DNA of 64,000 nt from Pseudomonadota bacterium (GCA_018001635.1 JAGNHS010000006.1:2905-66904), one strand, 5' to 3'. Positions 8,292 through 54,455 are shown, numbered from the stretch's first letter. The notes: generated by a model not told the origin, from the sequence alone. A program made the numbers and translations.

Positions 8292-8303
8292 ACTTTCCAA
8301 TAC

Positions 8304-8387: not shown

Positions 8388-8389
8388 TT

Positions 8390-10040: not shown

Positions 10041-10042
10041 CT

Positions 10043-12979: not shown

Positions 12980-13064
12980 TTCGGGGCGTTTATAGCACGC
13001 CGTGGCAACTTTGTTTAAAATTTTTCAAGGCTAAAGTGATGATATTCAGAATTTTTGTGGAAGT

Positions 13065-14105: not shown

Positions 14106-14141
14106 AATTAGGACTTATAAGAGGCTTTAGCTTTATTCAAT

Positions 14142-15353: not shown

Positions 15354-15463
15354 ATGTTTTGTTGTCTGAATCTGAATTTAAGTGGAGCAAACTTTTGGAA
15401 TATTTAAAATTCTGAGTTTTGTGCTTTGGTCTAATTTATTATTCAAATCTGCTAACCCCTTAA

Positions 15464-16048: not shown

Positions 16049-16355
16049 TACGTTTAGTAATAATGTAGCTAATTAAATGTGTCAAATAGAAATTAAAAAT
16101 AGCTAAGGGATTTTTTGGAAGATTGAAAAGAATCGCATGCAAATAGACCCAGAAGTTCTGAGCTGAAAGATGAGCCTAGGGCACATCTATGTAATAAATG
16201 GATCTATCTTTTAGGTTCGGGTATTAGTTTTTAGTATAATCTTCATACAATATTCACATTCAAATGCCCTTATAAGAAATTTAGACAGTTTTTTAACCAT
16301 AATTTAACTTGGTCTTATTGGGCTCTGAACCGATAATAGTAAGTCGGGGGCGTGA

Positions 16356-38142: not shown

Positions 38143-39591
38143 TTATTTTGTACCTGCCAGCTTAGGGAGTGAGTCGATTGTGGCTTGTGAAATCGCATAG
38201 CCCCTAGTTTGAGCAAGTCTTGCAGAAAGTGCCGATACGTAGGGCACCATATGTTTTCCAGGGCAATCATGACCATCATTTACGTTGAGGCAAACTCCCG
38301 TTAGGCAATGTCCTTTATCTCTATGAGTTCGTACGTGTTCTATAGGATATTTCATAGCGATTTGATCTTGAAGTTTTGTGAGGAGAGTTACAACTTCTTC
38401 AGGCACGGCATCTTTATCGTAATCTCCTGCAATTGAAACTCCGATAGATCGAGCATTGCAATCAGACGCGTGACAACCGCGATAACCTAATGGAGTTCCT
38501 TCAAAAATTTTCCACTCTCCTCGAGCATCCTTCTTAATCACAAAATGATAACCCAAATCTTTAAAAGGTTTTTGAAAGCGGTGAAACAAACTCATATCGA
38601 CAAGATTGGGTGATTGAGATCCATCGGTGTGGTGAATAACTATTTCATCGTAGGTGAGTTCTTGTTTTCTTTCCTGGAACCATTTTGGGTCCTGAGAGCT
38701 GACAGTCTGAGTGCTATATTTTCTTTTTTTTCCATTCACAGAGGAAAGAGCGCGATACTTTTGTCCATGGGCTTCCTCAGACCACCATTGTGCGCGAGAT
38801 ACAATATTGACATTTGAATTTGGGCTAAATCTTCGAGAGCTCACTTTGCTTTTGGCATTTTTAAGAGCGTTTCTGTCATTTTCAACAAGGGATAGAAATT
38901 TTGAATGCTGATTTCGGTAATCACTACTAGATAAAGAGAGCCATAAACTGTCTTCAACACATTTAAATTTTTTAGAAATATTGGAATTTTTTAAGGCTTT
39001 AATGAGGGCCAATTGAGTCTGCGTGACTTCTTGTTCTAAGGAGTCATTCTTAACAAGGGCTTCTTGGTCCATTCCGTGGGTTTTCATTTTTACAAAAAAT
39101 CCCTTTTGCGAATGACTTAAAAAGAAATGTTCTTGCTTTTGAACGGCATTCAAATAATTTATAAGACTCAAGTTTAAGCTACTAATGGCGGACTTTGTTC
39201 GACTCTTTTGAGGCCCATCGCTGAGCTTAAGTTTGAGTCCTTCGATGAAAGAAATTCTTTCATCAAGGTGATCTTTGTTGATGTATATTGCAAGTTGATC
39301 GAGATCATTGACTAGACTTGAATCAGGACAGGCACCCTTGTTAAAAATAAATTCTATAGGATCTGAATCAGTTTTAATATTATTGTTTGAACTTTGAGGA
39401 GTTTTTGTGTTTTGAATTTCTTCTCTTGAGGTTGCTTTTGTTGTTGTGTTTTTGTTGCTGTTCGCCGGATTCCTGTGAAAAATTCTACTAAAAAAACTAT
39501 CTGTAGCTGAAAAAACTGCTGGTATTGAAATTAAATTCAACAAACCTAAAATAAAAAAAACAAATGAGTACTGAGTTTTTTTCATGCCCAC
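38143..39591 (-). CDS. Secreted N-acetylmuramoyl-L-alanine amidase (amidase_2/PGRP family) with a long N-terminal region
   Basis: Signal peptide. The C-terminal domain has IVIHHTDGS, GYHFVI, GCHASDCNARSIGVSIAGDY and HRDKGHCLTG. Confidence 0.65.
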   Translation of the reverse strand: MGMKKTQYSFVFFILGLLNLISIPAVFSATDSFFSRIFHRNPANSNKNTTTKATSREEIQNTKTPQSSNNNIKTDSDPIEFIFNKGACPDSSLVNDLDQLAIYINKDHLDERISFIEGLKLKLSDGPQKSRTKSAISSLNLSLINYLNAVQKQEHFFLSHSQKGFFVKMKTHGMDQEALVKNDSLEQEVTQTQLALIKALKNSNISKKFKCVEDSLWLSLSSSDYRNQHSKFLSLVENDRNALKNAKSKVSSRRFSPNSNVNIVSRAQWWSEEAHGQKYRALSSVNGKKRKYSTQTVSSQDPKWFQERKQELTYDEIVIHHTDGSQSPNLVDMSLFHRFQKPFKDLGYHFVIKKDARGEWKIFEGTPLGYRGCHASDCNARSIGVSIAGDYDKDAVPEEVVTLLTKLQDQIAMKYPIEHVRTHRDKGHCLTGVCLNVNDGHDCPGKHMVPYVSALSARLAQTRGYAISQATIDSLPKLAGTK

Positions 39592-39759: not shown

Positions 39760-42700
39760 TTATTTTTTCTTCTTATTCTCTGTTTTGAATAGTTTTCTAA
39801 GAAGTTTTACAACATTCACTTTTTCTTCTTCCTCGGAGATGAGTTGATAACCTACAAAGTTATCCATTTTAGCTTTCCCGATGAGGAATTGTCCAAGGGC
39901 ATCTTCTTCGCTGTAAGCTGTAAAGTTTATAGTTCCAAAGAATCGTGAATTGCCCATAACTTTTTCAATATTAGATTGAGCTGAATCGCTAAGATCTGCA
40001 ATGAGGTCGCCAAACATGAATGTGAAACGATCGTATTCAGAATCTGGAAATTTGGCTTGCACCTCTAAGGCTTTAGCCGCGCCCACTCCATAATCTGTGC
40101 CTCCACCCAGTTGGACTTTATAGAAGTCATTTTCATGGGCTTCGTCAAAATCATAAGCCACTCCGTCAAAAGCCACGTAGGTAAAAACGATGTTTTTATA
40201 TTTGTGTTTTAAAAGTGAGCGAATGTTGAAAATGATTTCCTTCATTTTCTCTACATATCCCATCATACTTCCTGATAGGTCAGAGATAATAGTGACATGG
40301 GCAGAGATGTCGGGGTCAGGTTGCTGCCGATGATTTTTAGAATGAATGTTTTTCTTCTGTAAAAAGTCCACGCCAACTTCGAAGGGGTCAAGCTCGGAGG
40401 TATCCTCGCCCTCTTCTTCTCGAAGGTTGATCACGCCGAGTCCGAGTTTAATGGCATCGCGAACAATTTTCTTAGCCACATAGGGTTTACGGTCTAAAGG
40501 TTGAGAGCCAACAAATATTTTACGCATTTGTTCGGTTTGTCCCTTGAGTGGTCTTAGGTTGGGTAACTCAACTTCATCCTTTATGAGGCTTTGATAAAGC
40601 TCTAATGGAATTTCAATATAAGAGGGGTCGCCACCGCCGCAGCCTTGACCATTTGAGGGTTTGCCTGTGTCACTATCCTCATCGCTACCTTCGTCGGGTT
40701 CTCCGTCGCCTTCACCATCACCGTCATTTCCATCGCCAGGCTGGTTTGAGGATTTTTCAACATAGTATTCCTTGTCCTTAAGACCTTGGGGCTGCAAAAG
40801 AAGTCCATCATCAGTTACAAAGGGATTGTTGTCTAAATCATTCACTTTTGAGAGTAATCTTTTTATTCCGTTTTGCGCACGTCGATCGAAGACTATTCCG
40901 CCAACTTCAGGCAGCACTTTGAGGCTATAGCCGCTGCCAGTTCGAGTGAGGCCACCATTGTTGGCCGCTTTTGAGAATGCCGCTAAAAATCTTTCTGCAA
41001 CTTTTTGGTGATATCGATTGAGTGCTTTGAGAATTCCGTGAGGAACTTCATTGAGTGCCATAGAACCTACAACATCGTTGATGTTTTTATAAATACTACC
41101 TAGAGGATCAATTTCAATTCCTTCTTTGTTTTTGAGAGTGCTGACAATTCCCTTTGGAACTTCAGTTTGATCGATATGGTAATCTATTAAAAATTCTCTT
41201 AAATTTTTAAATAGATGACCGTAAATTTCTTTGTCTACTGTAGATTTTTCTGCAGCCTCAGGAGTCCATTCTCTAAAGCTAGGCGTTTGATGAATTTCAA
41301 TTCCTTCTTCCCAAGAAGAATTACTATCCAATATTTCCATTTTTTTAAGAGTTGAGACGTTTATTTGTCCTTCAGGGTTGACTCTTATTTTCGCTCTAGC
41401 CAAGCGATATCCAATGACTTTCATTTTAGGTTTGAAACTAAACCAGTCCCACGTCACTTCTTTTATAACATCGATGATAAGTGTGGCTTCTAATTCAACA
41501 GTTTTCCTAAGTATTTTGGCCCAACTGAGTAGAGTAGGGGCTACAGTTTTTCTATTGATGGGTGTGAAGTAACCCATTTCATTACTCACAGATAATTTCG
41601 CAACATCATCTGTCTGATTGTGCAAATTATTCCAGACAACACGCGGATAGGCGTAGGAGAGGTTCCAGTCCTGTTGCACTTGATATCGAATACGTTCAGG
41701 ATCGTGAGTGATGACCTGATAGAGGGTGCCGTCCATATAATCTTGAGGAAGAGGAGCCCCTTGTTGAGCAAGTTGGAATTTTTCTTCGTTGCTGAATTTT
41801 TTAACTAGGGCTAGGTGCCTGTTTTTGATCCATTGATCAGTCAGCTTAGAAAAAATAAACATGACATTATTGCCAAGGTTTGGATTGTTTATGATTTCTC
41901 TAGCATAATTTATAAATTTTTGATCGCGCTCCATTCCTTCCAATTTAATGTTTTCAGGGCGCCTATTGAATTCTTCTCTAATTTCTCTCCAAATTTCGAG
42001 TCCGAGAAAATAAGGATTTGTGAGTGAGGGTCGCGCTACTCTTCCAGCGAGCATCCCAATTTCAGCAGCGTCACCAAAACTTCGTGCATAGTCGGGGTGA
42101 TGTGAGAAAATAATTTCCTCAACGAGCATGGCAAAACCTTCATTGAGTAACTTTGTGTTAACGGCACCAGGAATAAAGCGATTCATTTTTTCAAATTTTT
42201 TCGCCATTTCTAATTTCCAAGGTGCGATATCGCTTGGTAGTTCACTAACAAAGGCTTGAAGAAGGCTTACCGTTTGCTTTCCTGAACTCTGACTAGTCTG
42301 AACAAGGCCATCGCGCCATTGATTGAATCCTATGGGTCTGTCAGCCTTTAAGTCTTTAGGTTCTACATAGGCACCGCTCCAAACATCTTGTGCCATTTCA
42401 AGCGAAAGTAAATGGAAAAACCAATCCTCTACTTCTCGAGGATCTTCATATTTTCCAATATCTGTCATTAGTTCATCGAGCTCAACAGAAACTCCAACGC
42501 GATCATGGGAAGTTTTGTGTTTAAAGTAAGAATTCACATGGAAGAAATTATGGCCATAGACGTGAGCCAATATGTTCATGAATAATATGGGACTTAAGTT
42601 GCTCAAGTAATAGCTATGCTGTGTGCTGTGGCCCGAGAGTACAAATTCTAAAACCCCTTGAAGATTTCGTGCTTGATTGAAAATTGCGGCCCCGTCACTC

Positions 42701-42969
42701 CAGCTGCCGACAGGGTAACGATTCACCGCCGCCATTCCAGCCACTGAAGACGGATTGAGTAATTCTACAATATGTTTTTTTATGCCATTTAGAAGACCTA
42801 ATTTATCGGCGATGTCATGAACTTCAGCTAAACGTTTATGATATTCCGCTGCGTCAGGTTGGTTGTGCGAGTCCGCTATTAAGTGCTCTTGGCAGCTGAA
42901 AGAGTGTTGGGCAAAGATGAAGCTAAGGATACTGAGAAACTTTAGAGTGTTTAATCTAATAAAGCTCAT
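39760..42969 (-). CDS. Fusion protein with an N-terminal SpoVR/YcgB-family domain and a C-terminal YeaH/YhbH (DUF444, vWA-like) domain, preceded by a signal-peptide-like N-terminus
   Basis: SpoVR motifs LAHVYGHNFFHVNSYF, NEGFAMLVEEII and NPYFLGLEIWREI. An acidic/Gly linker (DGDGEGDGEPDEGSDEDSD...GCGGGD) is followed by ELPNL and the DUF444 vWA core HVTIISDLSGSMMGY...KYKNIVFTYV...FYKVQLGGGT. Its start overlaps the upstream stop (ATGA). Confidence 0.7.
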   Translation of the reverse strand: MSFIRLNTLKFLSILSFIFAQHSFSCQEHLIADSHNQPDAAEYHKRLAEVHDIADKLGLLNGIKKHIVELLNPSSVAGMAAVNRYPVGSWSDGAAIFNQARNLQGVLEFVLSGHSTQHSYYLSNLSPILFMNILAHVYGHNFFHVNSYFKHKTSHDRVGVSVELDELMTDIGKYEDPREVEDWFFHLLSLEMAQDVWSGAYVEPKDLKADRPIGFNQWRDGLVQTSQSSGKQTVSLLQAFVSELPSDIAPWKLEMAKKFEKMNRFIPGAVNTKLLNEGFAMLVEEIIFSHHPDYARSFGDAAEIGMLAGRVARPSLTNPYFLGLEIWREIREEFNRRPENIKLEGMERDQKFINYAREIINNPNLGNNVMFIFSKLTDQWIKNRHLALVKKFSNEEKFQLAQQGAPLPQDYMDGTLYQVITHDPERIRYQVQQDWNLSYAYPRVVWNNLHNQTDDVAKLSVSNEMGYFTPINRKTVAPTLLSWAKILRKTVELEATLIIDVIKEVTWDWFSFKPKMKVIGYRLARAKIRVNPEGQINVSTLKKMEILDSNSSWEEGIEIHQTPSFREWTPEAAEKSTVDKEIYGHLFKNLREFLIDYHIDQTEVPKGIVSTLKNKEGIEIDPLGSIYKNINDVVGSMALNEVPHGILKALNRYHQKVAERFLAAFSKAANNGGLTRTGSGYSLKVLPEVGGIVFDRRAQNGIKRLLSKVNDLDNNPFVTDDGLLLQPQGLKDKEYYVEKSSNQPGDGNDGDGEGDGEPDEGSDEDSDTGKPSNGQGCGGGDPSYIEIPLELYQSLIKDEVELPNLRPLKGQTEQMRKIFVGSQPLDRKPYVAKKIVRDAIKLGLGVINLREEEGEDTSELDPFEVGVDFLQKKNIHSKNHRQQPDPDISAHVTIISDLSGSMMGYVEKMKEIIFNIRSLLKHKYKNIVFTYVAFDGVAYDFDEAHENDFYKVQLGGGTDYGVGAAKALEVQAKFPDSEYDRFTFMFGDLIADLSDSAQSNIEKVMGNSRFFGTINFTAYSEEDALGQFLIGKAKMDNFVGYQLISEEEEKVNVVKLLRKLFKTENKKKK

Positions 42970-45900
42970 TTTTTCTCCTCAGGAATCAATAAATATTCGC
43001 AACGATCGCCGAATCCAGCATGATTTCTTTCCAATTCCGGAACCTTATCTCTTATGAGATCATTACCTTCTAAAAGTTGTGTGACGTATTCAACAGTAAG
43101 AGGTGAGAGTGGAGATTCTTCAGTTTTAAAGGCAAATTCAGCGAATTCAGCTCGGGTGCTGAGCGCGGGTTCGTCTATGATTTCTTCGAGCATTTTCATC
43201 ATGAAAACGTTGGCATTGTCCCAGGGTAGATTGGCAATGGCTTGGTCTATAGCCCAAAGAAAAATAATCGCTAAATCACTTGAGCTCAAATTTCTGTGGA
43301 GTCCTTTTTGTACTTCTTTGAGTTTGGGATTTAAAAAACCCTGATTAGAGACAAACATTTGAAAGAGGTCTCTTATTTTGTCTGTAGTGCTTGCAAATTC
43401 TTCACGCACTTCTTTTGAGTTTTTCATGGAATCAAGCCAAGCTTGAGAGTTGGATTCTTGAAATCCATTGGATTGATAAAATTTGTAAAACAAATTTTTC
43501 ATGAGCGATTCAATGTTGATAATTAAGCGGCTTATGTATTCACGTTGTCCTTCTTGTTCCTGAATTGAGCCTTTAATTTTTAAAAAATCATCTAGGGAAT
43601 CGCTCTCAAGAACGCTAGACGCGGGAAGTTTGAAAGGAATAACGGGTTTTGAATTATGATGAGCATCCATGAGGTCTTGGAATTCGGAAAGGAAACCAGA
43701 GTGGTTATTTATTTTTAATCGAACTGGGGATAGATCCAAATTCCAAAATCTTAATTCTGGACGATTTCTTAAGTTGAGATAGACTCCCGTGATGAGCGGT
43801 TTGAGGTAGTACATTTCATTTTGAAGACTCGCCCTAAAAAACTTATGATTTTGGATTGAGTTTATGAAATGATTATAAAAATTGATTCTAAAAGAGTTAG
43901 AATTAAATTCTGCGAAATCAAGTCTTCCGCGAAGGTTGTCAAAGGTGACTGGTTTTACAACAACATGTTTCTTAATTTGGTTTCTTAATGTGGTTGAATT
44001 TATAGTGGAACCACCTTCTTCCACTTGATGATCATCATTGTACCATTCATCAACATTCCAATCGTCTTTGAGGTCTTTGCTGTCATGGGTATCGCTTTTA
44101 GAGCTAGTCACATAATAGAGTGGAGCGGGGGCTAGAGAGTCATCTTTAGCTTCTGTGAATAGAGAGTTAGTAACGGGCATTAAAAAGTTTCGCGCGTGAG
44201 CTTTGGGGAAAATTTGTGCAATTTCAGAAAGAATATGTGGATTCACTAAAATCAGTTTGTTTGAAAGAGTTAATTCTTGGAGACTTCGAGCTCTGATTTT
44301 TGAAATCAAACCCGAGGCTTTGGCCTCACGTGGAAAATCACCAAAGTTAATGAGATCAGAAAAACGAGCTAAGATGGAGGGCTCATATTGAGCACCTTCA
44401 ACTTGTGAAAGTGCTGCAATGATTTGTGATTCAATAGAACTAGCATCATCGATATATTGATCTCTAATTTCACGATTGGATGCAGGGTTGATGGTTACAA
44501 ATAAAGAGATATTTCTAACAGGAATTTCGATGGTCATTTTATCTTCAAGACGAGAGACTCTGACCAAGTTGTTGTTCAGTAAGTTTTGGATATAAGACAT
44601 AACTCGACTGAGAACGTTGGCGTTCTTAGCTTTGTGAAGATCGTCAATAAGTATGAAACCTCGGTAGCCGAGAGGAAGTGATAAGAAATTGTCTAAGTGT
44701 TTCAGTGCGTCTTCAACATATAAACTTTTTCCAGTGGCTTCTTCTTTTTTATCTACCAAATCTTCTACTTTTAGGAAAAAGGCTTGAGCATTTTCATCTA
44801 AAGGTCTGTTGAAGTCGTAAACTTTTATATCGAGTAATTGGATGAGCTTCTCAAAGAAAAAAGTTTTTCCTAAACTTGTTTCACCGAAAAATACGGCTGA
44901 TGAGGGAATTTGCTTTGAACTATCGGACCCTTGAGTTTGCGAAAGAATAAGCCTGAAAATTCTTTCTTTGAGATCCAGTTGACCAGCATATCCTAGTTTT
45001 GTGAGATCCACTGCGGCTCGAGCGGTGTCTTTAATTTTATGAAGAACGTCTTCGGGTTCAAGGGATTTATAATTTAAGGGGATGGGGAAAACTTTGGCTA
45101 AAAATCTTTCTACATAGTTTTCGTCAATCACTCGACTTCTTCTGAGTTTATGGTCGTCGACTAATGATTTTCTAAAAATGGAATAGGAGCGTACAAAGGC
45201 TTCGATGGGTTCTTGATTGAGTGAATTGGCAACAGCTTCAATTCGATTGGCTAAAAATTTGGTGATGTTCAAAAACGGAGCGCTGTTTCTTTCGGCGCCA
45301 GATTCGTTTCCATTGTATCGAAATGAGTAATTCAGAGTTCTAATGTCTTCTCGATAGAATAAATTTCTCAAAATGTTAGAGCGGTGCTCTACGCTTGGAT
45401 ATTCAAGTCGAACTATTTCAAAATCTTTTTGAAGATCCATAAAATGCGACTCAAGGCCTAAATCTTTTTCTAAATCTTCGATTTGTTCAGGAGTGGCTAC
45501 AATAATTTCTGAAACGCTTGGGGTAGCTTCATCTCTTAAGCGCCATTGCTTTTTTAATTTAGGTTGGATTCTTCTACCTTCGGAGGCCAACCACCACATG
45601 ATGTGAGGGAAAATTGTATTGGGTTTGTCTATGTCGCTACGAGAAGAACTGTTTCCATCTTTGTCACTGCCTTCGTTGGGGCTGTTGGCGCTCGATTGAG
45701 CCTCGGAAGCCGTTTCAGCTAATAGCTCAGTTTTTTTCATGGCCGCAGGATCGCTAATTCTAAAAGGTTTGATGTCGCTTTTTTCTCCAACTAGTGGACG
45801 TTCATTGCGTAAAAGGTCGCTCGCATCTGCTAAAAGAACAACACTATTTTCTTGGCTGAGTCTTCTCATGGCGTCTAGATTGCCAAAGATTTCTTCTTGA

Positions 45901-48900
45901 TGAACTTTTCCACCTTGTGGATATCTGAATATTGAAAGATGGGGATTTCGAAAATTCCAGGAAGTGTTTAAATTTGGATTTCCATTAGTATCTCTTTCTA
46001 GGGCCACGTTGTAGCGACTCGACCAATGAGTCATTAAAAAGCGAAGCATGAGTTTTTTGATGTTTTCAGGGACAACTATGATTCTATGTTTAGGTTTTTC
46101 AGGTTTTTTAGAGAGCTCACTCAAAATGGGTCTTAAATTTGGGAAAACTTGAAGATCGTCTGAGGTGAGCGCACTCACCGACATTCTTCTGATGTCAGGA
46201 GTGGATCTCGGAGTGTTCGGAGGCCAGTTGTACCATTGTGAGGTTAAGAATCTTGCATCGATTTCAAATAGACCTTTGTCTACTAAGCCTGCTTTGAATT
46301 CATGAGGATGAGCTTCTTGAAGTTTTAAAAGTTTTTTAGGAGTTGTTAGAACAACAGTTGTCACAGATTTGAAGGAGTCTGATGGAGAGCTTAAATCTTT
46401 AAGGTGTCGTCCTTTTCCTTCCGTGGCTAAGAGAAAAAGTCCAGAAAGTTTATGGGGCGAAGAGGGATCGTAAATGTGATCAGACGAGGTTGAGCGTGCT
46501 GATTCGGAGAAGCTTTCTTCATCGAGTTCATCGCCACCTTGGTTTGTTTCTACAACTTCTGGTTCATCTTCTTCATGCTTGTGTTTAGTTCCTTTGTTTC
46601 TGCCGTCGTTCTCTTCTTCATCCTCTTCGTCATCTTCTGTCTTTTTGTTTGAAGCTTTAGACTCGGGATCATTATTAGCGCTTACGGTTTCGATTCCCAT
46701 TTGTCTTTCAGAGTCGCTTGAGGCGTAGTCGAGTATGCTAAACGAGGATGCACTGTCACTATCTTCAGAGTTTTTGCCGTCTGTTTCTAATATGAAAGTT
46801 TGTAAAAGCTCGTCGGAGCCTGCAAATAGTACGTTTTGTGTTGTTGATTCAGAGGCAAGTTTTAATTCCTTGCGCATTTCCCGAGCATCGGATTGATGGT
46901 CAAAGAAGTAGAGTTCAAAATCGTTTCCACCGGGTTTCCATTTAAGGGACCAACCTGTTTTTTTGTTATCGAGTTTAAGGAGCATGAGGTTATAAAAGTT
47001 GGCGTAGTCTTCGTCAGACACTACAAGGAAAGTTTTTTTACCTTTTTTAGAAGGATCTACGACTAAGGAATCTAGGTACTCGTCTAAGAGTGGGTAAAGT
47101 GGTCCTTTCCCCCCAGGTCCGAAATTTAAATCTTTATAAGTTTTAGCTTGCTCAGCTTCATTTCCGTCGAGTGCTTTGGAAAGTGTTGAATTAATTGAGC
47201 GTAATCCAGTGGAGGATGAAATGCTCCATCGACTTCCTATCCAAAATAAGCGACCCTCTTTTTCGTTTTCCTGAACAATTCTTTCTTTAAGGCGAATATT
47301 AATATTTTCTTTTGAGGGAACAACAAGTTTAGAGACGTAATTAAAACATCTCATTTTATATTTTGCAGAAAAATAATCTTCATTGGGAGTGTCAACCCAA
47401 TACAGGGCACCATTGCCATCGGGAAGCACTCGGTCGCTAATGCGATTGGCGGTCACATAACTTTTTGTAAGCCAACCTGAGGAATCTGGAATGTTGTTGG
47501 CTGTGAATTCAATTTTTCCAGCTTTGAGTTGAGATTGAATTTCGTATCCTAGCAGATACACGCCACCCGTGTTCTGACGAGTCCTTTTGAGAAAGAGCAT
47601 AACGTAAATGCTGTTAGCGTGCTTTCTTAAACCTTTAAAAACTCTTACACCCTCAATTTGAGAGAATGAAAATGGAAGCTCTCGTGTGGCGAAGAAAGTG
47701 TTCTTTATGTTTTCTCCAACTCGACCCTCGTAATTAAAAAGGGTCACAAGATTGAATTTTCCTTCTAAATTAGGTTGCTGAGAGTTGTTTGGAAGCATTC
47801 CAAACAAATGGATTTTGAAGGCTTCCAATTGCTTCGAAGATTCGCTGAGTGGAAGATGAATGTCAGTGGTGTATAGAACAGCACGAATGGAATCTTTGGA
47901 AATGGATGTTCTTGAATTTTTCTTTGTCTTTGTTTTTGAGCTATTGGAATAGATAAGCTGTCCGGGAATGAATGATGAATCATCTTTGTTTAAATGCGAT
48001 GTTGAATCAGCAGGTGTTTCGTGTCGATCTGCGGAATGCGTATCCTCAAGATAGACTCCGGTTTTTTCATTGAGTTGTGATTGTTTGTCGTTATTGAATT
48101 CTCGATAAACAACATGGGGGCTCATGATTACGGGAAACTCGTTTTTAGCTTGAAGAAATACTGTTTTCTTTTTGGGGTCGCTTTCAGAGACGTTAAGATA
48201 GGCGGTGACTCGCAGTCCTCCGGGATTTTTTTGAGAATCACTTCTATAGGTTTTGGGCCCCACGCGAGGAGTGCTGTTGTCGAAAACTAAACCAAGGTTT
48301 TCCACATTCTTGATTCGTAATTCTAGTTCTTCTTTGCTGAAACTGTACGTATTCGATATAACCTGCATGTCTTTAACGCTGACGTGACCCATGGATTCTT
48401 CAAGTTCAATCGCGAAAGTTCCCCCTCCAGGATAATATTGAGTTTTTCCTGATAAAATTAAATAATGTTTTTTGTAAACCGCACCAGAAATGAGTTCGTC
48501 ATCAGGGGTGTTGTCTGAAAATCCAAAAATGGGTGCTGATTTTCTTTTTTCGATTTTAGGTTGTGGAAGATCAAAGGACTCTAGAATTATAACGTTGTCG
48601 TTGTTGAAAGGGTCGAATTTGAGTTTGGTAAATTGTTCTTGAACTTCGACAACCTGAATACTTCTGTTTCTGGATTTTAGTCTTAACAGAATGCTTTTAT
48701 CCAATGAGAATAAAACCTCAACAGAGGAATCGTTTGAGAGAGATCGAGTTAAAAACTTTTTATTGTCTTGATCCCAGCTGAGTCTTCCTTTTTGGGGTGG
48801 AGTACCTTCATATTGAAAGGAGAGCCCATCTCCTAAGGGTTCAAAGAATTGAGTGACTCCCGAAATGGCCATGTTAGAAACTTGAGGTTCGGGTCTTTTC

Positions 48901-49844
48901 TCGAGGACATCCACTAAGGGAGGATTAGTGAGCACACTCAGTTTAAGAGATTTTCCAGAATTAATATCGATGTCTCTATATCGACTTGTAAAAGTTTTTT
49001 TATCGATTTTGGAATTGGGGTCGAGATAATCCAATAAAAGCTTCACTTTTTTTAACCAAATATCAACGAGAGGGTGCTCTTTGTCGTTTTTCCATTTTTC
49101 ATAAACTGTTTTTAGAAGATAGGGGGAGTATGCTTTGTCGGGTGAATAGTCGGCAAAAAGTCTTATGAGTCCTTGGTCTGTGGGGTGAAATCTATAATCG
49201 AGGAGCACCGGTTCAGATATTTTAAATTCACCTGTTTCGATGCCTCCGTTTTTAACAATAGCAAAAGTGATTCCGTCAGAACCCATTTGAGGAATGCCTT
49301 GCTTAACTGAGATGATATACATACACGAGTTGTCTACAGGGTATTGTACAATCGTGATGTCTTTGGGGTCCTTTATGTTTTCAAGATAAATTTTACGTTT
49401 CGTGAGAGGATCGATGATTGGGACGGGAGTGGCAAATTTGTTGGGTATTTTTTGGGATTCATTAGCGCCAATAATGAGTGAGCTGGCTGCTTTTTTTTCT
49501 GAAGTGTTTTTGTTAACGATATAAATTTGTCCATCGAGAATGACTAAGGCTTCTTGATTTCCTTGTTGAGTGACAGGAGCTAAGAGTACAAAAGTTTCAG
49601 CGGATCGCTTATTCACGCCAAGCACTTCTTTTTGAATCAGTGGAGTAGAGTTTTCAGCTCCAGTATTAAAAAAATAAATTCCCTTTTTTTTGCCATTGAG
49701 TTCAGTGTTGAATACCAACTCGTATAAGGCTCTTGCATTATGAGGATGTGGAAAAATGAAAGACCCCTCGTCGGCCGCGCGTAAGGCTCCACTTTGTCCG
49801 ACAAGTAGGGCGGCAAGGGCAATATGTTTGAGGAGGTGTCTCAT
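42966..49844 (-). CDS. Giant (2292 aa) secreted protein with a Clp/Hsp100-like AAA+ ATPase domain and a poly-acidic low-complexity region
   Basis: Signal peptide (LKHIALAALLVGQSGALRA). Walker A FFGETSLGKT and Walker B GFILIDDLHKA, with ...LFVTINPASN resembling the Clp D2 core. A long Asp/Glu/Ser tract (TEDDEEDEEENDG...). The remainder is unassigned. Confidence 0.6.
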   Translation of the reverse strand: MRHLLKHIALAALLVGQSGALRAADEGSFIFPHPHNARALYELVFNTELNGKKKGIYFFNTGAENSTPLIQKEVLGVNKRSAETFVLLAPVTQQGNQEALVILDGQIYIVNKNTSEKKAASSLIIGANESQKIPNKFATPVPIIDPLTKRKIYLENIKDPKDITIVQYPVDNSCMYIISVKQGIPQMGSDGITFAIVKNGGIETGEFKISEPVLLDYRFHPTDQGLIRLFADYSPDKAYSPYLLKTVYEKWKNDKEHPLVDIWLKKVKLLLDYLDPNSKIDKKTFTSRYRDIDINSGKSLKLSVLTNPPLVDVLEKRPEPQVSNMAISGVTQFFEPLGDGLSFQYEGTPPQKGRLSWDQDNKKFLTRSLSNDSSVEVLFSLDKSILLRLKSRNRSIQVVEVQEQFTKLKFDPFNNDNVIILESFDLPQPKIEKRKSAPIFGFSDNTPDDELISGAVYKKHYLILSGKTQYYPGGGTFAIELEESMGHVSVKDMQVISNTYSFSKEELELRIKNVENLGLVFDNSTPRVGPKTYRSDSQKNPGGLRVTAYLNVSESDPKKKTVFLQAKNEFPVIMSPHVVYREFNNDKQSQLNEKTGVYLEDTHSADRHETPADSTSHLNKDDSSFIPGQLIYSNSSKTKTKKNSRTSISKDSIRAVLYTTDIHLPLSESSKQLEAFKIHLFGMLPNNSQQPNLEGKFNLVTLFNYEGRVGENIKNTFFATRELPFSFSQIEGVRVFKGLRKHANSIYVMLFLKRTRQNTGGVYLLGYEIQSQLKAGKIEFTANNIPDSSGWLTKSYVTANRISDRVLPDGNGALYWVDTPNEDYFSAKYKMRCFNYVSKLVVPSKENINIRLKERIVQENEKEGRLFWIGSRWSISSSTGLRSINSTLSKALDGNEAEQAKTYKDLNFGPGGKGPLYPLLDEYLDSLVVDPSKKGKKTFLVVSDEDYANFYNLMLLKLDNKKTGWSLKWKPGGNDFELYFFDHQSDAREMRKELKLASESTTQNVLFAGSDELLQTFILETDGKNSEDSDSASSFSILDYASSDSERQMGIETVSANNDPESKASNKKTEDDEEDEEENDGRNKGTKHKHEEDEPEVVETNQGGDELDEESFSESARSTSSDHIYDPSSPHKLSGLFLLATEGKGRHLKDLSSPSDSFKSVTTVVLTTPKKLLKLQEAHPHEFKAGLVDKGLFEIDARFLTSQWYNWPPNTPRSTPDIRRMSVSALTSDDLQVFPNLRPILSELSKKPEKPKHRIIVVPENIKKLMLRFLMTHWSSRYNVALERDTNGNPNLNTSWNFRNPHLSIFRYPQGGKVHQEEIFGNLDAMRRLSQENSVVLLADASDLLRNERPLVGEKSDIKPFRISDPAAMKKTELLAETASEAQSSANSPNEGSDKDGNSSSRSDIDKPNTIFPHIMWWLASEGRRIQPKLKKQWRLRDEATPSVSEIIVATPEQIEDLEKDLGLESHFMDLQKDFEIVRLEYPSVEHRSNILRNLFYREDIRTLNYSFRYNGNESGAERNSAPFLNITKFLANRIEAVANSLNQEPIEAFVRSYSIFRKSLVDDHKLRRSRVIDENYVERFLAKVFPIPLNYKSLEPEDVLHKIKDTARAAVDLTKLGYAGQLDLKERIFRLILSQTQGSDSSKQIPSSAVFFGETSLGKTFFFEKLIQLLDIKVYDFNRPLDENAQAFFLKVEDLVDKKEEATGKSLYVEDALKHLDNFLSLPLGYRGFILIDDLHKAKNANVLSRVMSYIQNLLNNNLVRVSRLEDKMTIEIPVRNISLFVTINPASNREIRDQYIDDASSIESQIIAALSQVEGAQYEPSILARFSDLINFGDFPREAKASGLISKIRARSLQELTLSNKLILVNPHILSEIAQIFPKAHARNFLMPVTNSLFTEAKDDSLAPAPLYYVTSSKSDTHDSKDLKDDWNVDEWYNDDHQVEEGGSTINSTTLRNQIKKHVVVKPVTFDNLRGRLDFAEFNSNSFRINFYNHFINSIQNHKFFRASLQNEMYYLKPLITGVYLNLRNRPELRFWNLDLSPVRLKINNHSGFLSEFQDLMDAHHNSKPVIPFKLPASSVLESDSLDDFLKIKGSIQEQEGQREYISRLIINIESLMKNLFYKFYQSNGFQESNSQAWLDSMKNSKEVREEFASTTDKIRDLFQMFVSNQGFLNPKLKEVQKGLHRNLSSSDLAIIFLWAIDQAIANLPWDNANVFMMKMLEEIIDEPALSTRAEFAEFAFKTEESPLSPLTVEYVTQLLEGNDLIRDKVPELERNHAGFGDRCEYLLIPEEKK

Positions 49845-49862: not shown

Positions 49863-52463
49863 TTATTTTTTGTCGTGCTTGTTGACGTGCTCCACTAAGA
49901 ATCGAAGCGCTTGCACGAAAGATCTCTCGTTGTATCCGTATCTTTCCAAGTTGCTGAGTATCTTTTGCCCAGCCGTTTGAGTTTCAGTGGCCACGGATCT
50001 TCCTTGCATGAAATCAAGGAGGCTTTGGTAGCTGTTAGTTTTTAAGTTCTGACTCATCAACCAATCAGAAATAGCTTTTTCAAGCTTAATCCACATGGGG
50101 AGGGGTGATCCGTCAGTATTATGAAGCGCTAAATTGGCAACATAAGCTTGGAGATCTGGGGGATTAAGATCGTCGCCCCAGCGTTTTCTAAAGGCCTTTT
50201 TAATTTCAGTGAGTCTATCAAAATTGATGGCAGTAGGTATGTCGCCTTTTGATTTAGTGTGGTGTGTGGCTTTAGAGTCTTGCGCTAAGTGTGAAATTTC
50301 CGAAGTGACTGCATCGTAAATACTGCGCACTTTATTGGTGTCGTTAGCAATAATCGAGTTCACATCGTTCATGAGCTTAGGAAGTATGAGCTCTGCTGCA
50401 ATTCTCTCGGCGAGTTCGAGCCATTTAGCGTATTCAGGGCGTTCCTTTTGAAATTGGTTTTCGTGAAGGGTGAGTCTAAAGGCGTCTTTTATTTCTACAG
50501 GAGTTAAAGTGTTTGAATGTCCGGGAGATTGTGCGAGTTCAAGGGCCTTTTTAAAGACCACTTCAATATCGCGTTGTCCAATTCCATTATCGCCTTCATT
50601 GAGAAGAGCTTCCTTTGAGAATTCCGTTAAAGCCGCTAGAACTTCTTGATTCTCAACAACTTCATCTCCTGTGATAATTCGAAGACGGTCAATTGGGTCG
50701 GTGAACCATCTTAGATCGGGACGTGTGATACGAGTGAGAATGTTGGCGTCTTTGAGTTTATCGATATTTGTTTCAAGCGAAGAGCCTGCGGCAATGCATC
50801 CCAAGAAATATAGCGAATAGGGTGAAATATCGACAAAGGAACTTTTGCTAGCGCTGATTTCAGCTGGCGAATCAATTTTAACTCTTACGGCGTAATGACC
50901 CTCAGGGCCTGAAATATTTCCATTGCTGTCGGGTTCTGCATAAATTTCCTTGATGAGGGGTGAATTTGAGCTTTCGTTTAGTGTGGCGAGATTTTTGTGT
51001 TCTGTTGAATCCAATTTGCGTGCACTAAAGTTATTGGGTTTGAGAGTGAGTAAAAGTGCAAGCTCTCTCCATCTTGGATGGAGGAGGTTTTTCATGGCAA
51101 TATGTTGTAAGCGAGATAGAAGAGCGTCGGTGTCCATGCGTTTTTTGGAATCTGCAATGGAACTATAGTTTGCAGAAAACACATTAAAGGTGTCCATCGC
51201 TAAAGCGGGGGTGTCTGAACCTTTGGCGACGCCTTCTTGTAATACAGAAAGTAGGAAGTGGAGAACTACGGGGTCGTTTCGAGTAACGTCGTCCCAAATG
51301 ATCATGGAGCCATCGTTTTGAGAGAGGGGTCCGTTAAAATGGAAGCCGAGAGTGTTATTGGCGCCTTTAATTCTTGCGGCTACGTTGGCAGTTCCAATTA
51401 AAGAAGAGGTGTCGGGGGCTTCTTCCATAGGACGAATAATGGGATCGCGATTGGAGGCAAGGCTGATGTCTTTTCTTGCAATACCCACAAAATTTTCAAA
51501 TATGGCTAAATAGTCAGCTACGGTGAGAGAAGTTGCTTTTGTGGCTTTTAAAATATGTTTTTTATAAAAAGGAATGAGAAATTCTCTTAGGATATCTTCT
51601 GCATGAGAATCGCGGGCGACAGCTTGGCCAGGATTTCTTTCGTAGAAATCACCAATGTCGAAACCTAACATTTTAGAGGCGGTGGCACCTAGAGTTTTTG
51701 CGTAAGCCACTTTGAGTTCGGTGGGAAGTAGGCTGAAGGGACTTCTTTGAAGGCTTGTAACATTAAGGCGATCGCTATCTTTGACTAAGAATTGATCGAG
51801 TCTTTGACCTAATGAAGGATCAGTTTGTTTTATCATGTCCAAATTTTTCCAAAAATAGGTGTATTCCTTGAATAGAGGATCTCGAACTGAGAGGTGGGCT
51901 AGGGCATATCGAATGACGTATTCGAGAACTGTTTTTCCAGTTCCTGGAGGTCCCTTTAAAAGTGGTCCTTTACTTCCGCGCATACCTTGTGCGGCTTCGG
52001 AGATGATTTTTGCCAAGCTCGAGCTAGCTTCATATTGGCCTACGAGAAAAAGTCCGCCAGTTGCGGGCAAGGCATCATGATAGACTTTGGGAACATTATA
52101 ATATTGGTGCTTGTAGACGGGGTCTAAAACTCGGCGATATCCAAAATTATTCAAGACCGCTAATTGTTTTTGATCAGCATTCATTAAAAGTAAGGGATGC
52201 TCTTTTATGAGATCGGGTAATTTTGAAAAAGGATACTCTACGGCGTATTCTTCGGTGCCGGCAATAGCTAGTTGAGCCACTGTTTCGGGCACTAAAAGAG
52301 TTGAGCATAATTTTGGATCAACATGAAAACTTTTAGGAGTGCTAGTTGTTGATTTAGCCGCGGATGCTTTTTTGCTTTCTGCTGCAAATGAAAAATTTTC
52401 TAAGCTCATTAAAAAAATAACGACGTGTGTAATTTTTAGAATTGTAGGTAGGCTTTTTCTCAT
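49863..52463 (-). CDS. Divergent PrkA/YeaG-like AAA+ serine protein kinase homolog with a signal-peptide-like N-terminus
   Basis: Walker A LLKGPPGTGKT. The region LIGTANVAARIKG...GPLSQNDGSMIIWDD...VLHFLLSVLQEGVA parallels PrkA LVGKVD...GALCRANQGIMEFVE...LHPLLTATQEGNY. The C-terminus GYNERSFVQALRFL parallels PrkA GYTRKQVRLLCEW. Homology assignment is from recollection of YeaG. Confidence 0.55.
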   Translation of the reverse strand: MRKSLPTILKITHVVIFLMSLENFSFAAESKKASAAKSTTSTPKSFHVDPKLCSTLLVPETVAQLAIAGTEEYAVEYPFSKLPDLIKEHPLLLMNADQKQLAVLNNFGYRRVLDPVYKHQYYNVPKVYHDALPATGGLFLVGQYEASSSLAKIISEAAQGMRGSKGPLLKGPPGTGKTVLEYVIRYALAHLSVRDPLFKEYTYFWKNLDMIKQTDPSLGQRLDQFLVKDSDRLNVTSLQRSPFSLLPTELKVAYAKTLGATASKMLGFDIGDFYERNPGQAVARDSHAEDILREFLIPFYKKHILKATKATSLTVADYLAIFENFVGIARKDISLASNRDPIIRPMEEAPDTSSLIGTANVAARIKGANNTLGFHFNGPLSQNDGSMIIWDDVTRNDPVVLHFLLSVLQEGVAKGSDTPALAMDTFNVFSANYSSIADSKKRMDTDALLSRLQHIAMKNLLHPRWRELALLLTLKPNNFSARKLDSTEHKNLATLNESSNSPLIKEIYAEPDSNGNISGPEGHYAVRVKIDSPAEISASKSSFVDISPYSLYFLGCIAAGSSLETNIDKLKDANILTRITRPDLRWFTDPIDRLRIITGDEVVENQEVLAALTEFSKEALLNEGDNGIGQRDIEVVFKKALELAQSPGHSNTLTPVEIKDAFRLTLHENQFQKERPEYAKWLELAERIAAELILPKLMNDVNSIIANDTNKVRSIYDAVTSEISHLAQDSKATHHTKSKGDIPTAINFDRLTEIKKAFRKRWGDDLNPPDLQAYVANLALHNTDGSPLPMWIKLEKAISDWLMSQNLKTNSYQSLLDFMQGRSVATETQTAGQKILSNLERYGYNERSFVQALRFLVEHVNKHDKK

Positions 52464-52608: not shown

Positions 52609-53148
52609 ATGCGAGTCGTTTTTGTTTTTTCTTTTTTATGGGCTGCGCTTCTTTATTCTGCCACAACGAGTCAAGATTCTGCGAGCACTATATATTTTAA
52701 GGTGCTCAAGGGTTTTGATGTAGAAAAAAAGAAATCAAATGCTGAAGTAGACGCATTAGTCGGCAAAAAAATTCGCATTCCTGGATTTATGGTTCCTCTT
52801 GAATATAAATCTCAAAAGGTGACTGAGTTTTTGTTAGTACAGTCTCTTCCCTCTTGCATTCACGTACCTCCCCCCTCTCCTAATCAAACCATTATGGTGA
52901 AGATGAAGGATAAAAAAACAGTGTCTTTGAGTATGGATCCCATTTGGGTGACAGGAATCTTAAAATTGGTCAAACAAGACAAATATACATTTGGTGATGC
53001 CGTTTATAGCATTGAGGGCGAGTCTTCTGCTCCTGTAGATTCAAAAGACTTTAATAAAGTGGGTTTATTTATGGGAGATCAGGTGGATATGGCTCCTTTA
53101 GAGGAGAATCCTTTTGGTGGTGAGAGTAAAACTAAGAAAAAGAAATAG
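52609..53148 (+). CDS. DUF3299-like periplasmic protein
   Basis: Signal peptide. The FLLVQSLPSCIHVPPPSPNQ motif is characteristic of DUF3299 (assignment from recollection). Confidence 0.5.
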   Translation: MRVVFVFSFLWAALLYSATTSQDSASTIYFKVLKGFDVEKKKSNAEVDALVGKKIRIPGFMVPLEYKSQKVTEFLLVQSLPSCIHVPPPSPNQTIMVKMKDKKTVSLSMDPIWVTGILKLVKQDKYTFGDAVYSIEGESSAPVDSKDFNKVGLFMGDQVDMAPLEENPFGGESKTKKKK

Positions 53149-53185
53149 AAATAGTTTAAGAAATAGACTTAAAGGGTACGACATT

Positions 53186-53761
53186 ATGAAAAAGCATTTT
53201 TTAAAATCCCTAACATTAAGTTTGTGTCTCTCAATAACTTTGATGGCCAAAGAAAAACATCATCATCATGAGTCTTTGGCAAAGCATATTCACGGTGAAG
53301 CTAATCTCAATTTGATACTTGAAGATGATAAAAAGGGTGAGCTTGAATTTGAGGCCCCTGGCATGGATGTCGTTGGATTTGAATACGATGCCAAAACACC
53401 CAAGGAAAAAGAGAAGCTCAATCAAGTTTTGTCAGAATTTAAAAGCAAAGCTCAAGAATTATTTGTTTTGGATGCAAGTCTAAAATGCGTTTTAACTCCT
53501 AAAGAGGTGGCCTGGGAATCGGAGGATCACGAAGAGCCTGAAGGCGTTCATAGAGATCATGAAAAACAGCCCGTCGCAGAACATCATGCGATTGAAGCTT
53601 CTTACTCTATAAATTGTCAAAAGCCTCTTAAGGGGACTCGTTTTAATTTGGAGCTTTTCAAAAAATTTAAATCGTTAAAAAAAGTCAATTTTCAGTATAT
53701 GGGCAGCAATCTTCAGCGGGCCAGCGAGTTGTCTGCTGGAAAGTCTAGCATTGAGCTCTAA
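53186..53761 (+). CDS. His-rich periplasmic metal-binding protein, ZrgA/DUF2796-like
   Basis: Signal peptide. HHHHE, HIHGE and HRDHEKQPVAEHH tracts. The start is set at the internal ATG at 53186 (MKKHF). Confidence 0.5.
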   Translation: MKKHFLKSLTLSLCLSITLMAKEKHHHHESLAKHIHGEANLNLILEDDKKGELEFEAPGMDVVGFEYDAKTPKEKEKLNQVLSEFKSKAQELFVLDASLKCVLTPKEVAWESEDHEEPEGVHRDHEKQPVAEHHAIEASYSINCQKPLKGTRFNLELFKKFKSLKKVNFQYMGSNLQRASELSAGKSSIEL

Positions 53762-54455
53762 AGAGTCCATTTCTGTAGAGGCTTTAGAGTTTTCATATGT
53801 AAGAAATTCTAAGCCCTTGTTAAAAATTCCTGATTTAAAAATATTAAATGGAGATAGAGTTTTTTTATTTGGCCCAAGTGGTTCCGGAAAAAGCACCTTG
53901 CTTTCATTGCTCACTGGAGTTTTGAAACCTCAAAAAGGCAAGATAACACTTTTAAATAATTTTGAAATATCTCAGGCTAATACTATGGCGGCCGATATTT
54001 TTCGGGGGGCGCATATGGGGTATATATTCCAGCAGTTTAATTTGCTTCCTCATTTAAGCGTGCGCGAAAATATTTCATTAGTTTTGGATTTAAATCCTCT
54101 CCGATTAAATAAAGTTTTAAAATCAAGCACTGTTGAATTGGAAATTAAAAGATTAGCTCAACATTTAGAGATTGAAAATATCTTAGATCGCTCTGCAATG
54201 GCTATTAGTGTTGGTCAGCAACAACGAGTTGCCGCTGCTCGTGCCTTAATTGGTGCTCCGGACATTATTATTGCTGATGAACCCACATCTTCTTTGGATA
54301 CAGATCGCCGAGATCTTTTTATGAAAATGATTCTTAGTGAAGTTGAATTGAGTCAAAGCACTTTGATTTTTGTGAGTCATGATCAAAGTTTGATGAAGCA
54401 TTTTAATAAGCATTTTTCTATTCTGGATTGGAGTGCAGAGGGAGTCGTGCAGTGA
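53751..54455 (+). CDS. ABC transporter ATP-binding protein
   Basis: Walker A GPSGSGKST, Q-loop, signature VGQQQRVAAARAL and Walker B IIIADEPTSSLD. Confidence 0.85.
   Translation: MSSKESISVEALEFSYVRNSKPLLKIPDLKILNGDRVFLFGPSGSGKSTLLSLLTGVLKPQKGKITLLNNFEISQANTMAADIFRGAHMGYIFQQFNLLPHLSVRENISLVLDLNPLRLNKVLKSSTVELEIKRLAQHLEIENILDRSAMAISVGQQQRVAAARALIGAPDIIIADEPTSSLDTDRRDLFMKMILSEVELSQSTLIFVSHDQSLMKHFNKHFSILDWSAEGVVQ

Follow-up and report, generated by a model that had tools for sequence, protein, structure and literature searches.

A gene for a protein of 2292 amino acids (aa; ~261 kDa) was analyzed computationally at positions 42966..49844, minus strand, of a 64,000-nucleotide stretch of DNA from a Pseudomonadota bacterium (GCA_018001635.1, JAGNHS010000006.1:2905-66904; the whole stretch is referred to here as the window). 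The gene is intact and strongly selected, and it lies between genes for a PrkA-like protein and a SpoVR::DUF444 fusion. The C-terminal half of its product resembles a class-I Clp/Hsp100 body, in which two D1-like modules appear to have lost their nucleotide sites and one D2-like module appears to have kept its own, and all three products of the unit begin with signal-peptide-like sequences. On balance, we regard as probable the combined statement of this architecture, an exported triad, and a giant protein that acts as an ATP-switched scaffold or remodeller rather than as a threading unfoldase; the mechanism taken by itself is held with less confidence.

An intact gene under strong purifying selection

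Translation of the window and the listing of its open reading frames (ORFs) gave a single uninterrupted ORF of 2292 codons at 42966..49844. A scan of the genome collection revealed a colinear orthologue of 2291 aa, 96% identical, in an independent metagenome-assembled genome (MAG) labelled 'uncultured Bacteriovoracaceae bacterium' (locus L002), and the two genes differ by one indel in total, a single in-frame codon. The ratio of non-synonymous to synonymous substitution rates (dN/dS) between them is 0.036 at a dS of 0.60 and is at or below 0.07 across all 200-codon windows of the gene; between aa 1601 and 1800 there are no non-synonymous changes, although dS is 0.57 in this segment. Additionally, 114 homologues of 1700-2330 aa have an identical domain order, and the family comprises ~200 cluster representatives. 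These observations confirm 42966..49844 as one intact, strongly selected gene.

A preliminary description of this DNA, made from the sequence alone, had itself raised the possibility that the ORF concatenates several genes through undetected frameshifts. We consider such an annotation or assembly artefact practically impossible. Nothing was found in its favour, and it is refuted by the L002 orthologue, which is colinear over its full length, comes from an independent MAG and differs by one in-frame codon indel, by dN/dS values that are uniformly low along the entire length, by the domain order shared among the 114 homologues, and by confident AlphaFold2 (AF2) models of both halves of the protein. 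The giant ORF and the motifs quoted in that description are all present in the translation, although the P-loop GETSLGKT starts at residue 1654 and not near residue 1500, i.e., ~150 residues from where it had been placed.

A Clp-derived body with one conserved ATP site

An AF2 model of residues 1233-2292, computed with a 48-sequence alignment, had a mean predicted local distance difference test (pLDDT) score of 85.3 and a predicted template modelling (pTM) score of 0.76. When this model was compared with the PDB by Foldseek, the top 50 matches were all class-I Clp/Hsp100 proteins (ClpA, ClpC, ClpC1, ClpB and Hsp104), with E-values from 4e-13 to 7e-11 and 670-790 aligned columns, mostly ~700-770. 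Since the D1+D2 chains of these proteins have ~550-810 residues, the matches are read as spanning both tiers.

The same relationship was found by profile alignment. With hhalign, the family profile matched E. coli ClpA at 95.4% probability (E 1.9e-8), aligning aa 1451-1840 with ClpA 323-656; within this range aa 1451-1640 correspond to ClpA 323-490, the D1 small domain included, and the alignment runs colinearly from the end of D1 into D2. The aligned rows, window first and ClpA second, include 'FEIVRLEYPSVEHR' with 'FQKIDITEPSIEET', 'IDENYVERFLAKVFPIP' with 'VNVADIESVVARIARIP' at the D1-D2 linker, 'SAVFFGETSLGKT' with 'SFLFAGPTGVGKT' at Walker A, 'ILIDDLHKA' with 'LLLDEIEKA' at Walker B, 'VRNISLFVTIN' with 'FRNVVLVMTTN' at sensor-1, and 'ILARFSDLINF' with 'FRNRLDNIIWF'. 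Profile and predicted fold together confirm the C-terminal half as a class-I Clp/Hsp100 body, with two stacked AAA+ tiers joined through a D1 small domain and the characteristic D1-D2 linker, and the whole D1-linker-D2 unit is predicted to be Clp-derived. The Clp/Hsp100-like AAA+ core of the preliminary description is borne out by these results, as the motifs it quoted fall on Walker A, Walker B and sensor-1 of ClpA D2. Its placement of the motifs in a Clp D2/AAA_2 arrangement was right for D2 but too narrow, since the resemblance spans D1, linker and D2, and a dead D1 is duplicated upstream.

The D2-like AAA+ module (aa 1600-1900; 44145..45047; all coordinates within the giant gene and its two partner genes are on the minus strand) follows the class-I order of Walker A, Walker B, sensor-1, 'NR.D' arginine and sensor-2, and all of its catalytic elements are conserved according to hhalign and to family counts taken from alignment columns of 35-109 homologues. 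Walker A is GETSLGKT (aa 1654-1661; 44862..44885), with K1660 invariant, and Walker B is ILIDDLH(KA) (aa 1731-1737; 44634..44654), with D1734 and D1735 invariant. Sensor-1, LFVTINPASN, starts at residue 1781 (44475..44504) and contains the invariant N1786. R1827 (44364..44366) is also invariant and aligns with ClpA R643, which we take to be the arginine finger of D2, and the sensor-2-like R1885 (44190..44192), in the sequence 'ARNFL' ('ARxFL'), is kept in 95% of homologues. Judged by these residues, D2 is predicted to be catalytically complete, with the difference that Walker B reads 'DD' in this family, whereas Clp proteins have the catalytic 'DE'.

The D1-like module that precedes D2, together with its helical small domain and the D1-D2 linker, covers aa 1233-1590 (45075..46148; AF2 pLDDT mostly >85). 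At its Walker A position the family has 'VLVVPEELK' throughout, with no Gly-rich loop (109 homologues), and the Walker B Asp is kept in 54 of the 109; on these residues, D1 is classed as a pseudo-ATPase whose nucleotide site appears to have been lost family-wide. The loops that line the pore in Clp proteins have diverged as well. The D2 pore-1 loop region (aa 1693-1709) is short and variable and has no conserved aromatic residue, with the ClpA 'GYVG' aligning to 'KKEEAT..', and the D1 pore-loop region is shortened and variable, Q1316 being its only conserved residue. Neither tier appears to keep the aromatic pore loop of Clp proteins (KYR in D1, GYVG in D2).

Further upstream, an alpha/beta module at aa ~905-1232 (aa 905-1232; 46149..47132) is a putative extra copy of the nucleotide-dead D1. 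The single window sequence of this module matched the family pseudo-D1 profile at 97.4% probability (E 1e-11, hhalign), and 57 of the 116 full-length members give two tandem matches to the D1 profile. We therefore describe the protein as having a pair of dead D1 copies ahead of a single live D2. An earlier hhalign comparison of the duplication (E 2e-32) was possibly inflated by mis-registered rows, and the single-sequence control was relied on instead; the internal duplication was not visible in a BLASTP self-comparison of the giant protein, whereas profile methods showed it. As with the second copy, the extra copy is degenerate at the nucleotide site ('TFLVVSDEDY').

The extra D1 copy also carries a disordered acidic and Ser-rich insertion of 104 residues (aa 1022-1125; 46470..46781; pLDDT ~30), which in the AF2 model comes next after the strand equivalent to that of Walker B. 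An acidic stretch of roughly 60 aa had been noted in the preliminary description; the stretch is present, but its poly-Asp/Glu core is shorter, ~30 aa (EDDEEDEEENDG...EDEPEVVE; aa 1070-1099; 46548..46637), and lies within this disordered loop. A shorter disordered Ser/acid-rich loop (aa 1380-1406) occupies the equivalent topological place in the second D1 copy, and similar acidic tracts at the equivalent relative position were found in 9 of 116 members. The acidic tract of the window is under purifying selection, with a dN/dS of 0.098 against the L002 orthologue.

The Clp-like body is flanked by two further regions. The N-terminal region (aa ~24-880; 47205..49775) is beta-rich and beta-propeller-like, and the C-terminal domain (aa 1945-2292; 42969..44012; AF2 pLDDT ~85-95) is all-helical and family-specific, with R1986, W2136, D2200 and W2208 conserved. 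No Pfam or PDB sequence match was found for the C-terminal domain, its fold having been searched within the larger model only. As in ClpA, the secondary structure of the AF2 model includes no coiled-coil middle domain. Unlike Clp/Hsp100 proteins, the giant protein has a predicted signal peptide, a propeller-like N-terminal extension of ~850 aa and a helical C-terminal domain of ~350 aa, and has no Clp_N; its D1 nucleotide site is lost and its D1 large domain is duplicated.

Standard sequence profiles recognise little of this architecture. Pfam gave only a sub-threshold AAA_22 match to the giant protein (aa 1649-1760, 21-24 bits against a cut-off of 27), and NCBIfam gave no match. Segments of 350-500 aa had no match up to E 10 with Pfam AAA_2, ClpB_D2-small or Clp_N or with the NCBIfam ClpA/ClpB models, which leaves the protein below every Clp threshold of both collections. 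When PDB sequences were searched with phmmer and hmmsearch, nothing was found with the single sequence or with a 4-sequence profile, and a 48-sequence profile gave only marginal P-loop matches (E 0.006 to the Hsp104 D2 P-loop). The earlier statement that most of the protein belongs to no recognisable family holds at the level of such profiles.

These weak matches could also be taken to mean that the P-loop domain is an NTPase switch of the STAND/AAA_22 type, whose likeness to Clp is that of any AAA+ domain. The best Pfam matches of the P-loop region are indeed AAA_22 (21-24 bits), ATPase_2 and AAA_16, and the Walker B pattern 'hhhhDDxH' resembles STAND/AAA_16 motifs. Every one of these matches is below its gathering score, however, and the Foldseek top 50 consist exclusively of class-I Clp/Hsp100 proteins aligned over both tiers, while the hhalign alignment is colinear with ClpA from the D1 small domain through the linker to Walker A, Walker B, sensor-1 and 'NR.D' of D2. 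We consider a STAND-type domain very improbable and retain the Clp-derived assignment.

A conserved three-gene unit with PrkA-like and SpoVR::DUF444 proteins

The genes on either side of the giant gene had been described as PrkA-like and SpoVR::YeaH, and both assignments were confirmed by Pfam in the window. The upstream partner (49863..52463) encodes a PrkA-like protein of 866 aa, AAA+/kinase-like in type, that is barely recognised by Pfam (PrkA 26.6 bits against a cut-off of 25; AAA_PrkA 20.5 bits, under the cut-off of 25). Its Walker A sequence GPPGTGKT is kept across lineages. The downstream partner (39760..42969) encodes a fusion of 1069 aa between SpoVR (46.6 bits) and DUF444, the YeaH family with its vWA domain (60.7 bits). 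The metal ion-dependent adhesion site (MIDAS) motif D-x-[ST]-G-S-M of the vWA domain is kept in the YeaH part in 10 of 10 lineages examined. The linker between SpoVR and DUF444/vWA (residues ~724-792; 40594..40800) is Gly/Asp/Glu-rich and of low complexity (GDGNDGDGEGDGEPDEGSDEDSD...), comparable acidic linkers are present in all 6 lineages compared, and these linkers echo the acidic loops of the giant protein.

The three genes are tightly packed. The PrkA-like stop codon lies 18 nt ahead of the ATG of the giant gene, and the TGA of the giant gene overlaps the ATG of the SpoVR::DUF444 gene (ATGA, 42966..42969), with a GAGGAG Shine-Dalgarno sequence 8 nt upstream. A scan for promoters and terminators gave site numbers no higher than those in shuffled sequence. 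The order PrkA-like (835-910 aa), giant, SpoVR::DUF444 (1016-1377 aa) was found at every locus with enough flanking sequence, in 12 lineages (triads in the window/L002, L001/L003, L004, L005/L006, L008, L011, L012, L013, L014 and L015; partial in L007 and L010). Between the window lineage and the Oligoflexales lineage, all three proteins are 23-24% identical, an equal divergence such as co-inherited partners would show.

The triad encodes together the same three domain families as the known PrkA-YeaH(YhbH, DUF444)-SpoVR(YcgB) module, examples of which are yeaGH/ycgB in E. coli, prkA/yhbH/spoVR in Bacillus and bd0228-bd0231 in Bdellovibrio. As in that module, AAA+ Walker motifs are retained in the PrkA-like protein, and the vWA MIDAS is retained in the YeaH part. 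Unlike in the canonical module, SpoVR and YeaH are fused in one polypeptide, a gene for ~2000 aa separates the PrkA-like gene from that of the fusion, the N-termini of all products are signal-peptide-like, and the PrkA-like protein is ~200 aa longer than canonical PrkA. The preliminary description proposed that the giant gene replaces or extends part of the module. Extension agrees with the present data, but replacement does not, as SpoVR and YeaH are still present, fused, in every orthologous locus, and no standalone yeaH was found in place of the giant gene in the loci examined.

At locus L011, a canonical PrkA of 694 aa (771..2855; AAA_PrkA 1e-84, PrkA 2e-87; 285-294 bits) is encoded 2 kb upstream of the triad (4871..16401) on the same contig. 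Because this genome keeps a canonical PrkA beside the triad, the triad is a diverged paralogous system and not a replacement.

Predicted export of the triad

The N-terminus of the giant protein (aa 1-23; 49776..49844), MRHLLKHIALAALLVGQSGALRA with ADEGS beyond the predicted cleavage site, is organised like a cleavable Sec signal peptide, in which a short positive stretch precedes a 9-12-residue hydrophobic core, after which comes a cleavage motif of small residues. Similar N-termini were found in 82-91 of 114-116 full-length members, many with AxA-type sites, e.g., '...AVA/NTE' (a slash marks the predicted cleavage site), and a conserved motif begins right behind these sites in the family, e.g., 'A/NTEE' and then 'PY..V'. 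The PrkA-like and SpoVR::DUF444 partners also have signal-peptide-like N-termini, in 10 of 10 lineages read. A hydrophobicity scan of the three window proteins found no segment of transmembrane length, the hydrophobic (h-) regions being short. Signal peptides were called by a hand-made rule that is unspecific, flagging 22 of 44 window ORFs. From these features we infer that the three triad products would be exported; the preliminary reading of the giant protein as exported extends, by N-terminal layout, to the family.

Alternatively, the N-termini may not be export signals, or the starts may be mis-called, and the triad would then be an enlarged version of the ordinary intracellular PrkA/YeaH/SpoVR stress module, supplemented with a Clp-like adaptor, in the cytoplasm or at the cytoplasmic face of the membrane. 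The crude signal-peptide rule and the ATPase sites conserved in two of the three proteins, which point to an ATP-containing compartment, are in line with this possibility, and the canonical module is itself cytoplasmic, forming an attack-phase core operon in Bdellovibrio HD100 (PMC5430801). Against it, the layout of positive n-region, h-region and AxA recurs in three different proteins across at least 10 lineages at ~20-25% identity, and the positive charges ahead of the h-region predict an N-in, C-out orientation. Additionally, the h-regions are too short for membrane anchoring, the conserved motif ('A/NTEE', then 'PY..V') directly follows the predicted cleavage sites, and the canonical PrkA at L011, 2 kb from the triad, has a hydrophilic start with no signal-like N-terminus. 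A cytoplasmic triad is in our view unlikely, but it is the alternative that we take most seriously, and export is the reading that we continue with.

The cysteine content of the triad may bear on the compartment. The three proteins are cysteine-poor, with 3 Cys among the 2292 residues of the giant protein and 2 in each partner; C2282, near the C-terminus of the giant protein, is kept in 88% of the family. In 9 of 10 lineages, both partners have one conserved Cys a few residues past the point of predicted cleavage; it is embedded in a 'C-[EQ]-x-x-[LF]'-like motif common to the PrkA-like and SpoVR::DUF444 proteins. In the window this is Cys 53 of the PrkA-like protein (residues 50-56; 52296..52316) and Cys 26 of the SpoVR::DUF444 protein (residues 23-29; 42883..42903). 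The motif is also found in L004, L005, L008, L011 and L012-L015 and is absent from the L003 lineage; examples are KLCSTLL, TTCESLF, IKCEFEL and RSCEDLL in PrkA-like proteins and FSCQEHL, KQCETLF, EKCEGHL and GICENDL in SpoVR::DUF444 proteins. One clade of giant proteins carries the same motif (ATCEGLF, KACQGLF). The conserved Cys could form an intermolecular disulfide, which would suit an oxidising compartment, or could be part of a shared sorting or docking tag.

A putative ATP-switched scaffold or remodeller

Taken together, the sequence features suggest that the giant, PrkA-like and SpoVR-YeaH proteins form one putative complex outside the cytoplasm, in which the giant protein, switched by ATP, would serve as scaffold or remodeller in an exported machine of PrkA-like and vWA proteins. 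The propellers may bind a target. The single live D2 ATP site, flanked by pseudo-ATPase domains, would drive conformational changes by a logic like that of Torsin and LAP1, and these changes would couple the propeller-bound target to both partners, the ATPase of the PrkA-like protein and the metal-dependent vWA domain in SpoVR-YeaH. The pairing of AAA+ and vWA proteins in the triad resembles those of MoxR-vWA and Mg-chelatase. Since the catalytic residues are invariant, nucleotide is implied to be available where the protein acts; ATP might be found in the prey cell or bdelloplast, at the cell surface, or in some as yet unrecognised compartment. A scaffold or remodeller is favoured over a threading motor because a single live ATP site stands beside two dead AAA domains, because Asp replaces the catalytic Glu, and because aromatic residues are missing from the pore loops.

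The closest mechanistic comparison may be with Torsin and its partners. Torsin has been described as an AAA+ ATPase resident in the endoplasmic reticulum (ER) that depends on an external activator and seems not to thread its substrate (10.1101/567099). The giant protein would be similar in being a Clp D2-related AAA+ protein with a signal peptide that acts outside the cytosol, apparently without threading, and in having a live AAA+ domain that may work with nucleotide-dead AAA-like partner domains, as Torsin does with LAP1/LULL1. LAP1 and LULL1 are Torsin's nucleotide-dead activators in the ER lumen, and Torsins themselves have a single AAA+ domain with a non-canonical Walker A and lack an Arg finger of their own, borrowing that of the activator. 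Unlike in Torsin, the dead AAA domains of the giant protein are fused in cis, and its active domain has both an Arg that aligns with ClpA R643 and a canonical GxxxxGKT Walker A. The resemblance would concern mechanism and not family membership, with homology compared no further than a shared Clp D2 ancestry.

The giant protein could instead be a true exported Clp/Hsp100 unfoldase that threads proteins, a bacterial counterpart of Plasmodium HSP101 in PTEX, the parasite's translocon for exported proteins, using ATP at the predator-prey interface to unfold proteins and translocate them across a prey or envelope membrane. HSP101, a secreted ClpB-type ATPase that acts in the parasitophorous vacuole, provides a precedent (PMC6550532, PMC7355975). 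The presence of the whole D1-D2 Clp body and the conservation of all D2 catalytic residues, including the Arg aligned with ClpA R643, agree with such an activity, and the signal peptide and the Bdellovibrionota host make it attractive for a predator. Neither tier, however, has a conserved aromatic pore loop, the loop being >10 residues shorter than in ClpA; the D1 nucleotide site is dead, whereas both ATPase tiers of HSP101 are live and the protein threads cargo with its pore loops; and Walker B has Asp where threading motors carry the catalytic Glu. No ClpP-like or pore-forming partner is found within the conserved triad, and one of the labelled lineages belongs to Oligoflexales, whose cultured type species is not known to be predatory. 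We judge an exported threading unfoldase improbable, somewhat more so than a cytoplasmic location, and keep the scaffold or remodeller as the favoured mechanism.

Several points weigh against this mechanism or against parts of it. The invariant Arg that aligns with the ClpA D2 Arg finger points to an ATPase of the ring type and would fit a classical hexameric motor as well as a switch, and the missing aromatic pore loop is a negative inference from alignment. The beta-propeller assignment of the N-terminal region is weak, with a template modelling (TM) score of ~0.1. Export is read from sequence features, by a crude rule that flags half of the window ORFs. The bacterial periplasm is not known to contain ATP, which makes an extracytoplasmic location hard to square with strictly conserved ATPase motifs. 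Additionally, what the canonical PrkA/YeaH/SpoVR module does is not settled either; PrkA of B. anthracis, in purified form, had negligible kinase and protease activity (PMC13001217).

The broader proposition that members of the Bdellovibrionota possess a dedicated machine of three proteins, driven by nucleotide and working in the periplasm, at the cell surface or within prey, is put forward tentatively and is, on the present evidence, rather less probable than the combined statement given at the outset. If such an extracytoplasmic machine exists, bacteria would have their own equivalent of the Torsin system of the ER lumen or of HSP101 in PTEX, and the machine would offer a first handle on what the PrkA/YeaH/SpoVR module physically does. 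That module is widespread and has been linked with sporulation, with survival of starvation and with the attack phase of Bdellovibrio, with no accepted biochemical mechanism (PMC13001217, PMC4664914, PMC5430801); in E. coli, yeaG matters in nitrogen starvation (PMC4664914), and in Bdellovibrio the canonical bd0228-bd0231 genes are an attack-phase core operon (PMC5430801). A variant of the module with a Clp-like remodeller, a SpoVR-vWA fusion and a new location would allow testable hypotheses about what the proteins contact and what kind of work they do. Bacterial AAA+ ATPases are regarded as cytoplasmic machines. A family-wide co-occurrence of Sec-type signals and strictly conserved ATPase sites within a pair of proteins from a single operon would challenge this view or, alternatively, would imply delivery into an ATP-holding compartment such as prey.

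Family size, hosts and database visibility

A word-indexed search of 5.8 billion proteins with the whole protein returned a single homologue (P0001, 24% identity), and the same k-mer-prefiltered search with a 35-sequence alignment as the query returned no matches. An exhaustive HMMER search was needed to reveal the family. A profile of the C-terminal 1060 residues was compared with 1.84 billion representatives of clusters at 50% identity and matched 206 proteins at E <= 1e-3, 154 of them at E <= 1e-30, mostly of 1800-2300 aa. Ten members that were looked up are unnamed or 'hypothetical protein'. A metagenome locus scan returned two loci. The labelled records are MAGs of Bacteriovoracaceae, Oligoflexales and Bdellovibrionales, so that all members labelled so far belong to the phylum Bdellovibrionota.

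The Clp/Hsp100 fold and the PrkA/YeaH/SpoVR module are known already. Literature searches linking PrkA or SpoVR with Bdellovibrio yielded the canonical operon only, and neither the giant gene nor an exported version of the module was found described. We file the giant protein outside the Clp ATPases because membership is at odds with its dead D1 nucleotide site, its missing aromatic pore loops, the lack of matches to the curated models and its predicted cellular location; it is also encoded in a PrkA/SpoVR/YeaH operon rather than beside ClpP or ClpS. Rather than as members of either known group, the protein is best placed in a new family that descends from the Clp body, and the operon is best regarded as a new PrkA-module variant. 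With ~200 clusters at 50% identity, ~2000 residues per member and no Pfam or NCBIfam model, defining the family would improve the annotation of Bdellovibrionota genomes. Its interest lies in being large, conserved and unannotated, in its combination of apparent export signals with conserved ATPase sites, and in the structural foothold that it may offer on a puzzling module.

Neighbouring genes in the window

Directly downstream of the triad, a gene on the minus strand (38143..39591) encodes a signal-peptide-bearing Amidase_2 protein (N-acetylmuramoyl-L-alanine amidase) of 482 aa. The same gene follows the triad in L002, though not in the more distant lineages, and its presence may reflect a cell-wall context or coincidence. 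On the other side, a divergent cluster on the plus strand (52609..55711) shares a 145-nt intergenic region with the PrkA-like gene and encodes a DUF3299 protein, a ZrgA-family zinc-uptake protein, an ABC ATPase and a MacB/FtsX-type permease, a set that resembles a metal-uptake/export system.

The plus-strand ORF at 26707..28620 was initially considered PrkA-like and was rejected; it encodes a sigma-54 activator of 637 aa (Sigma54_activat, AAA_lid_14, HTH_8), whose AAA+ domain gave the weak match. Approximately half of the 44 window ORFs of at least 150 aa have signal- or membrane-like N-termini by the crude rule, amongst them an S1/P1 nuclease (24440..25477) and an M28 peptidase (32003..33211), which is consistent with the large secretome expected for a Bdellovibrio-like predator.

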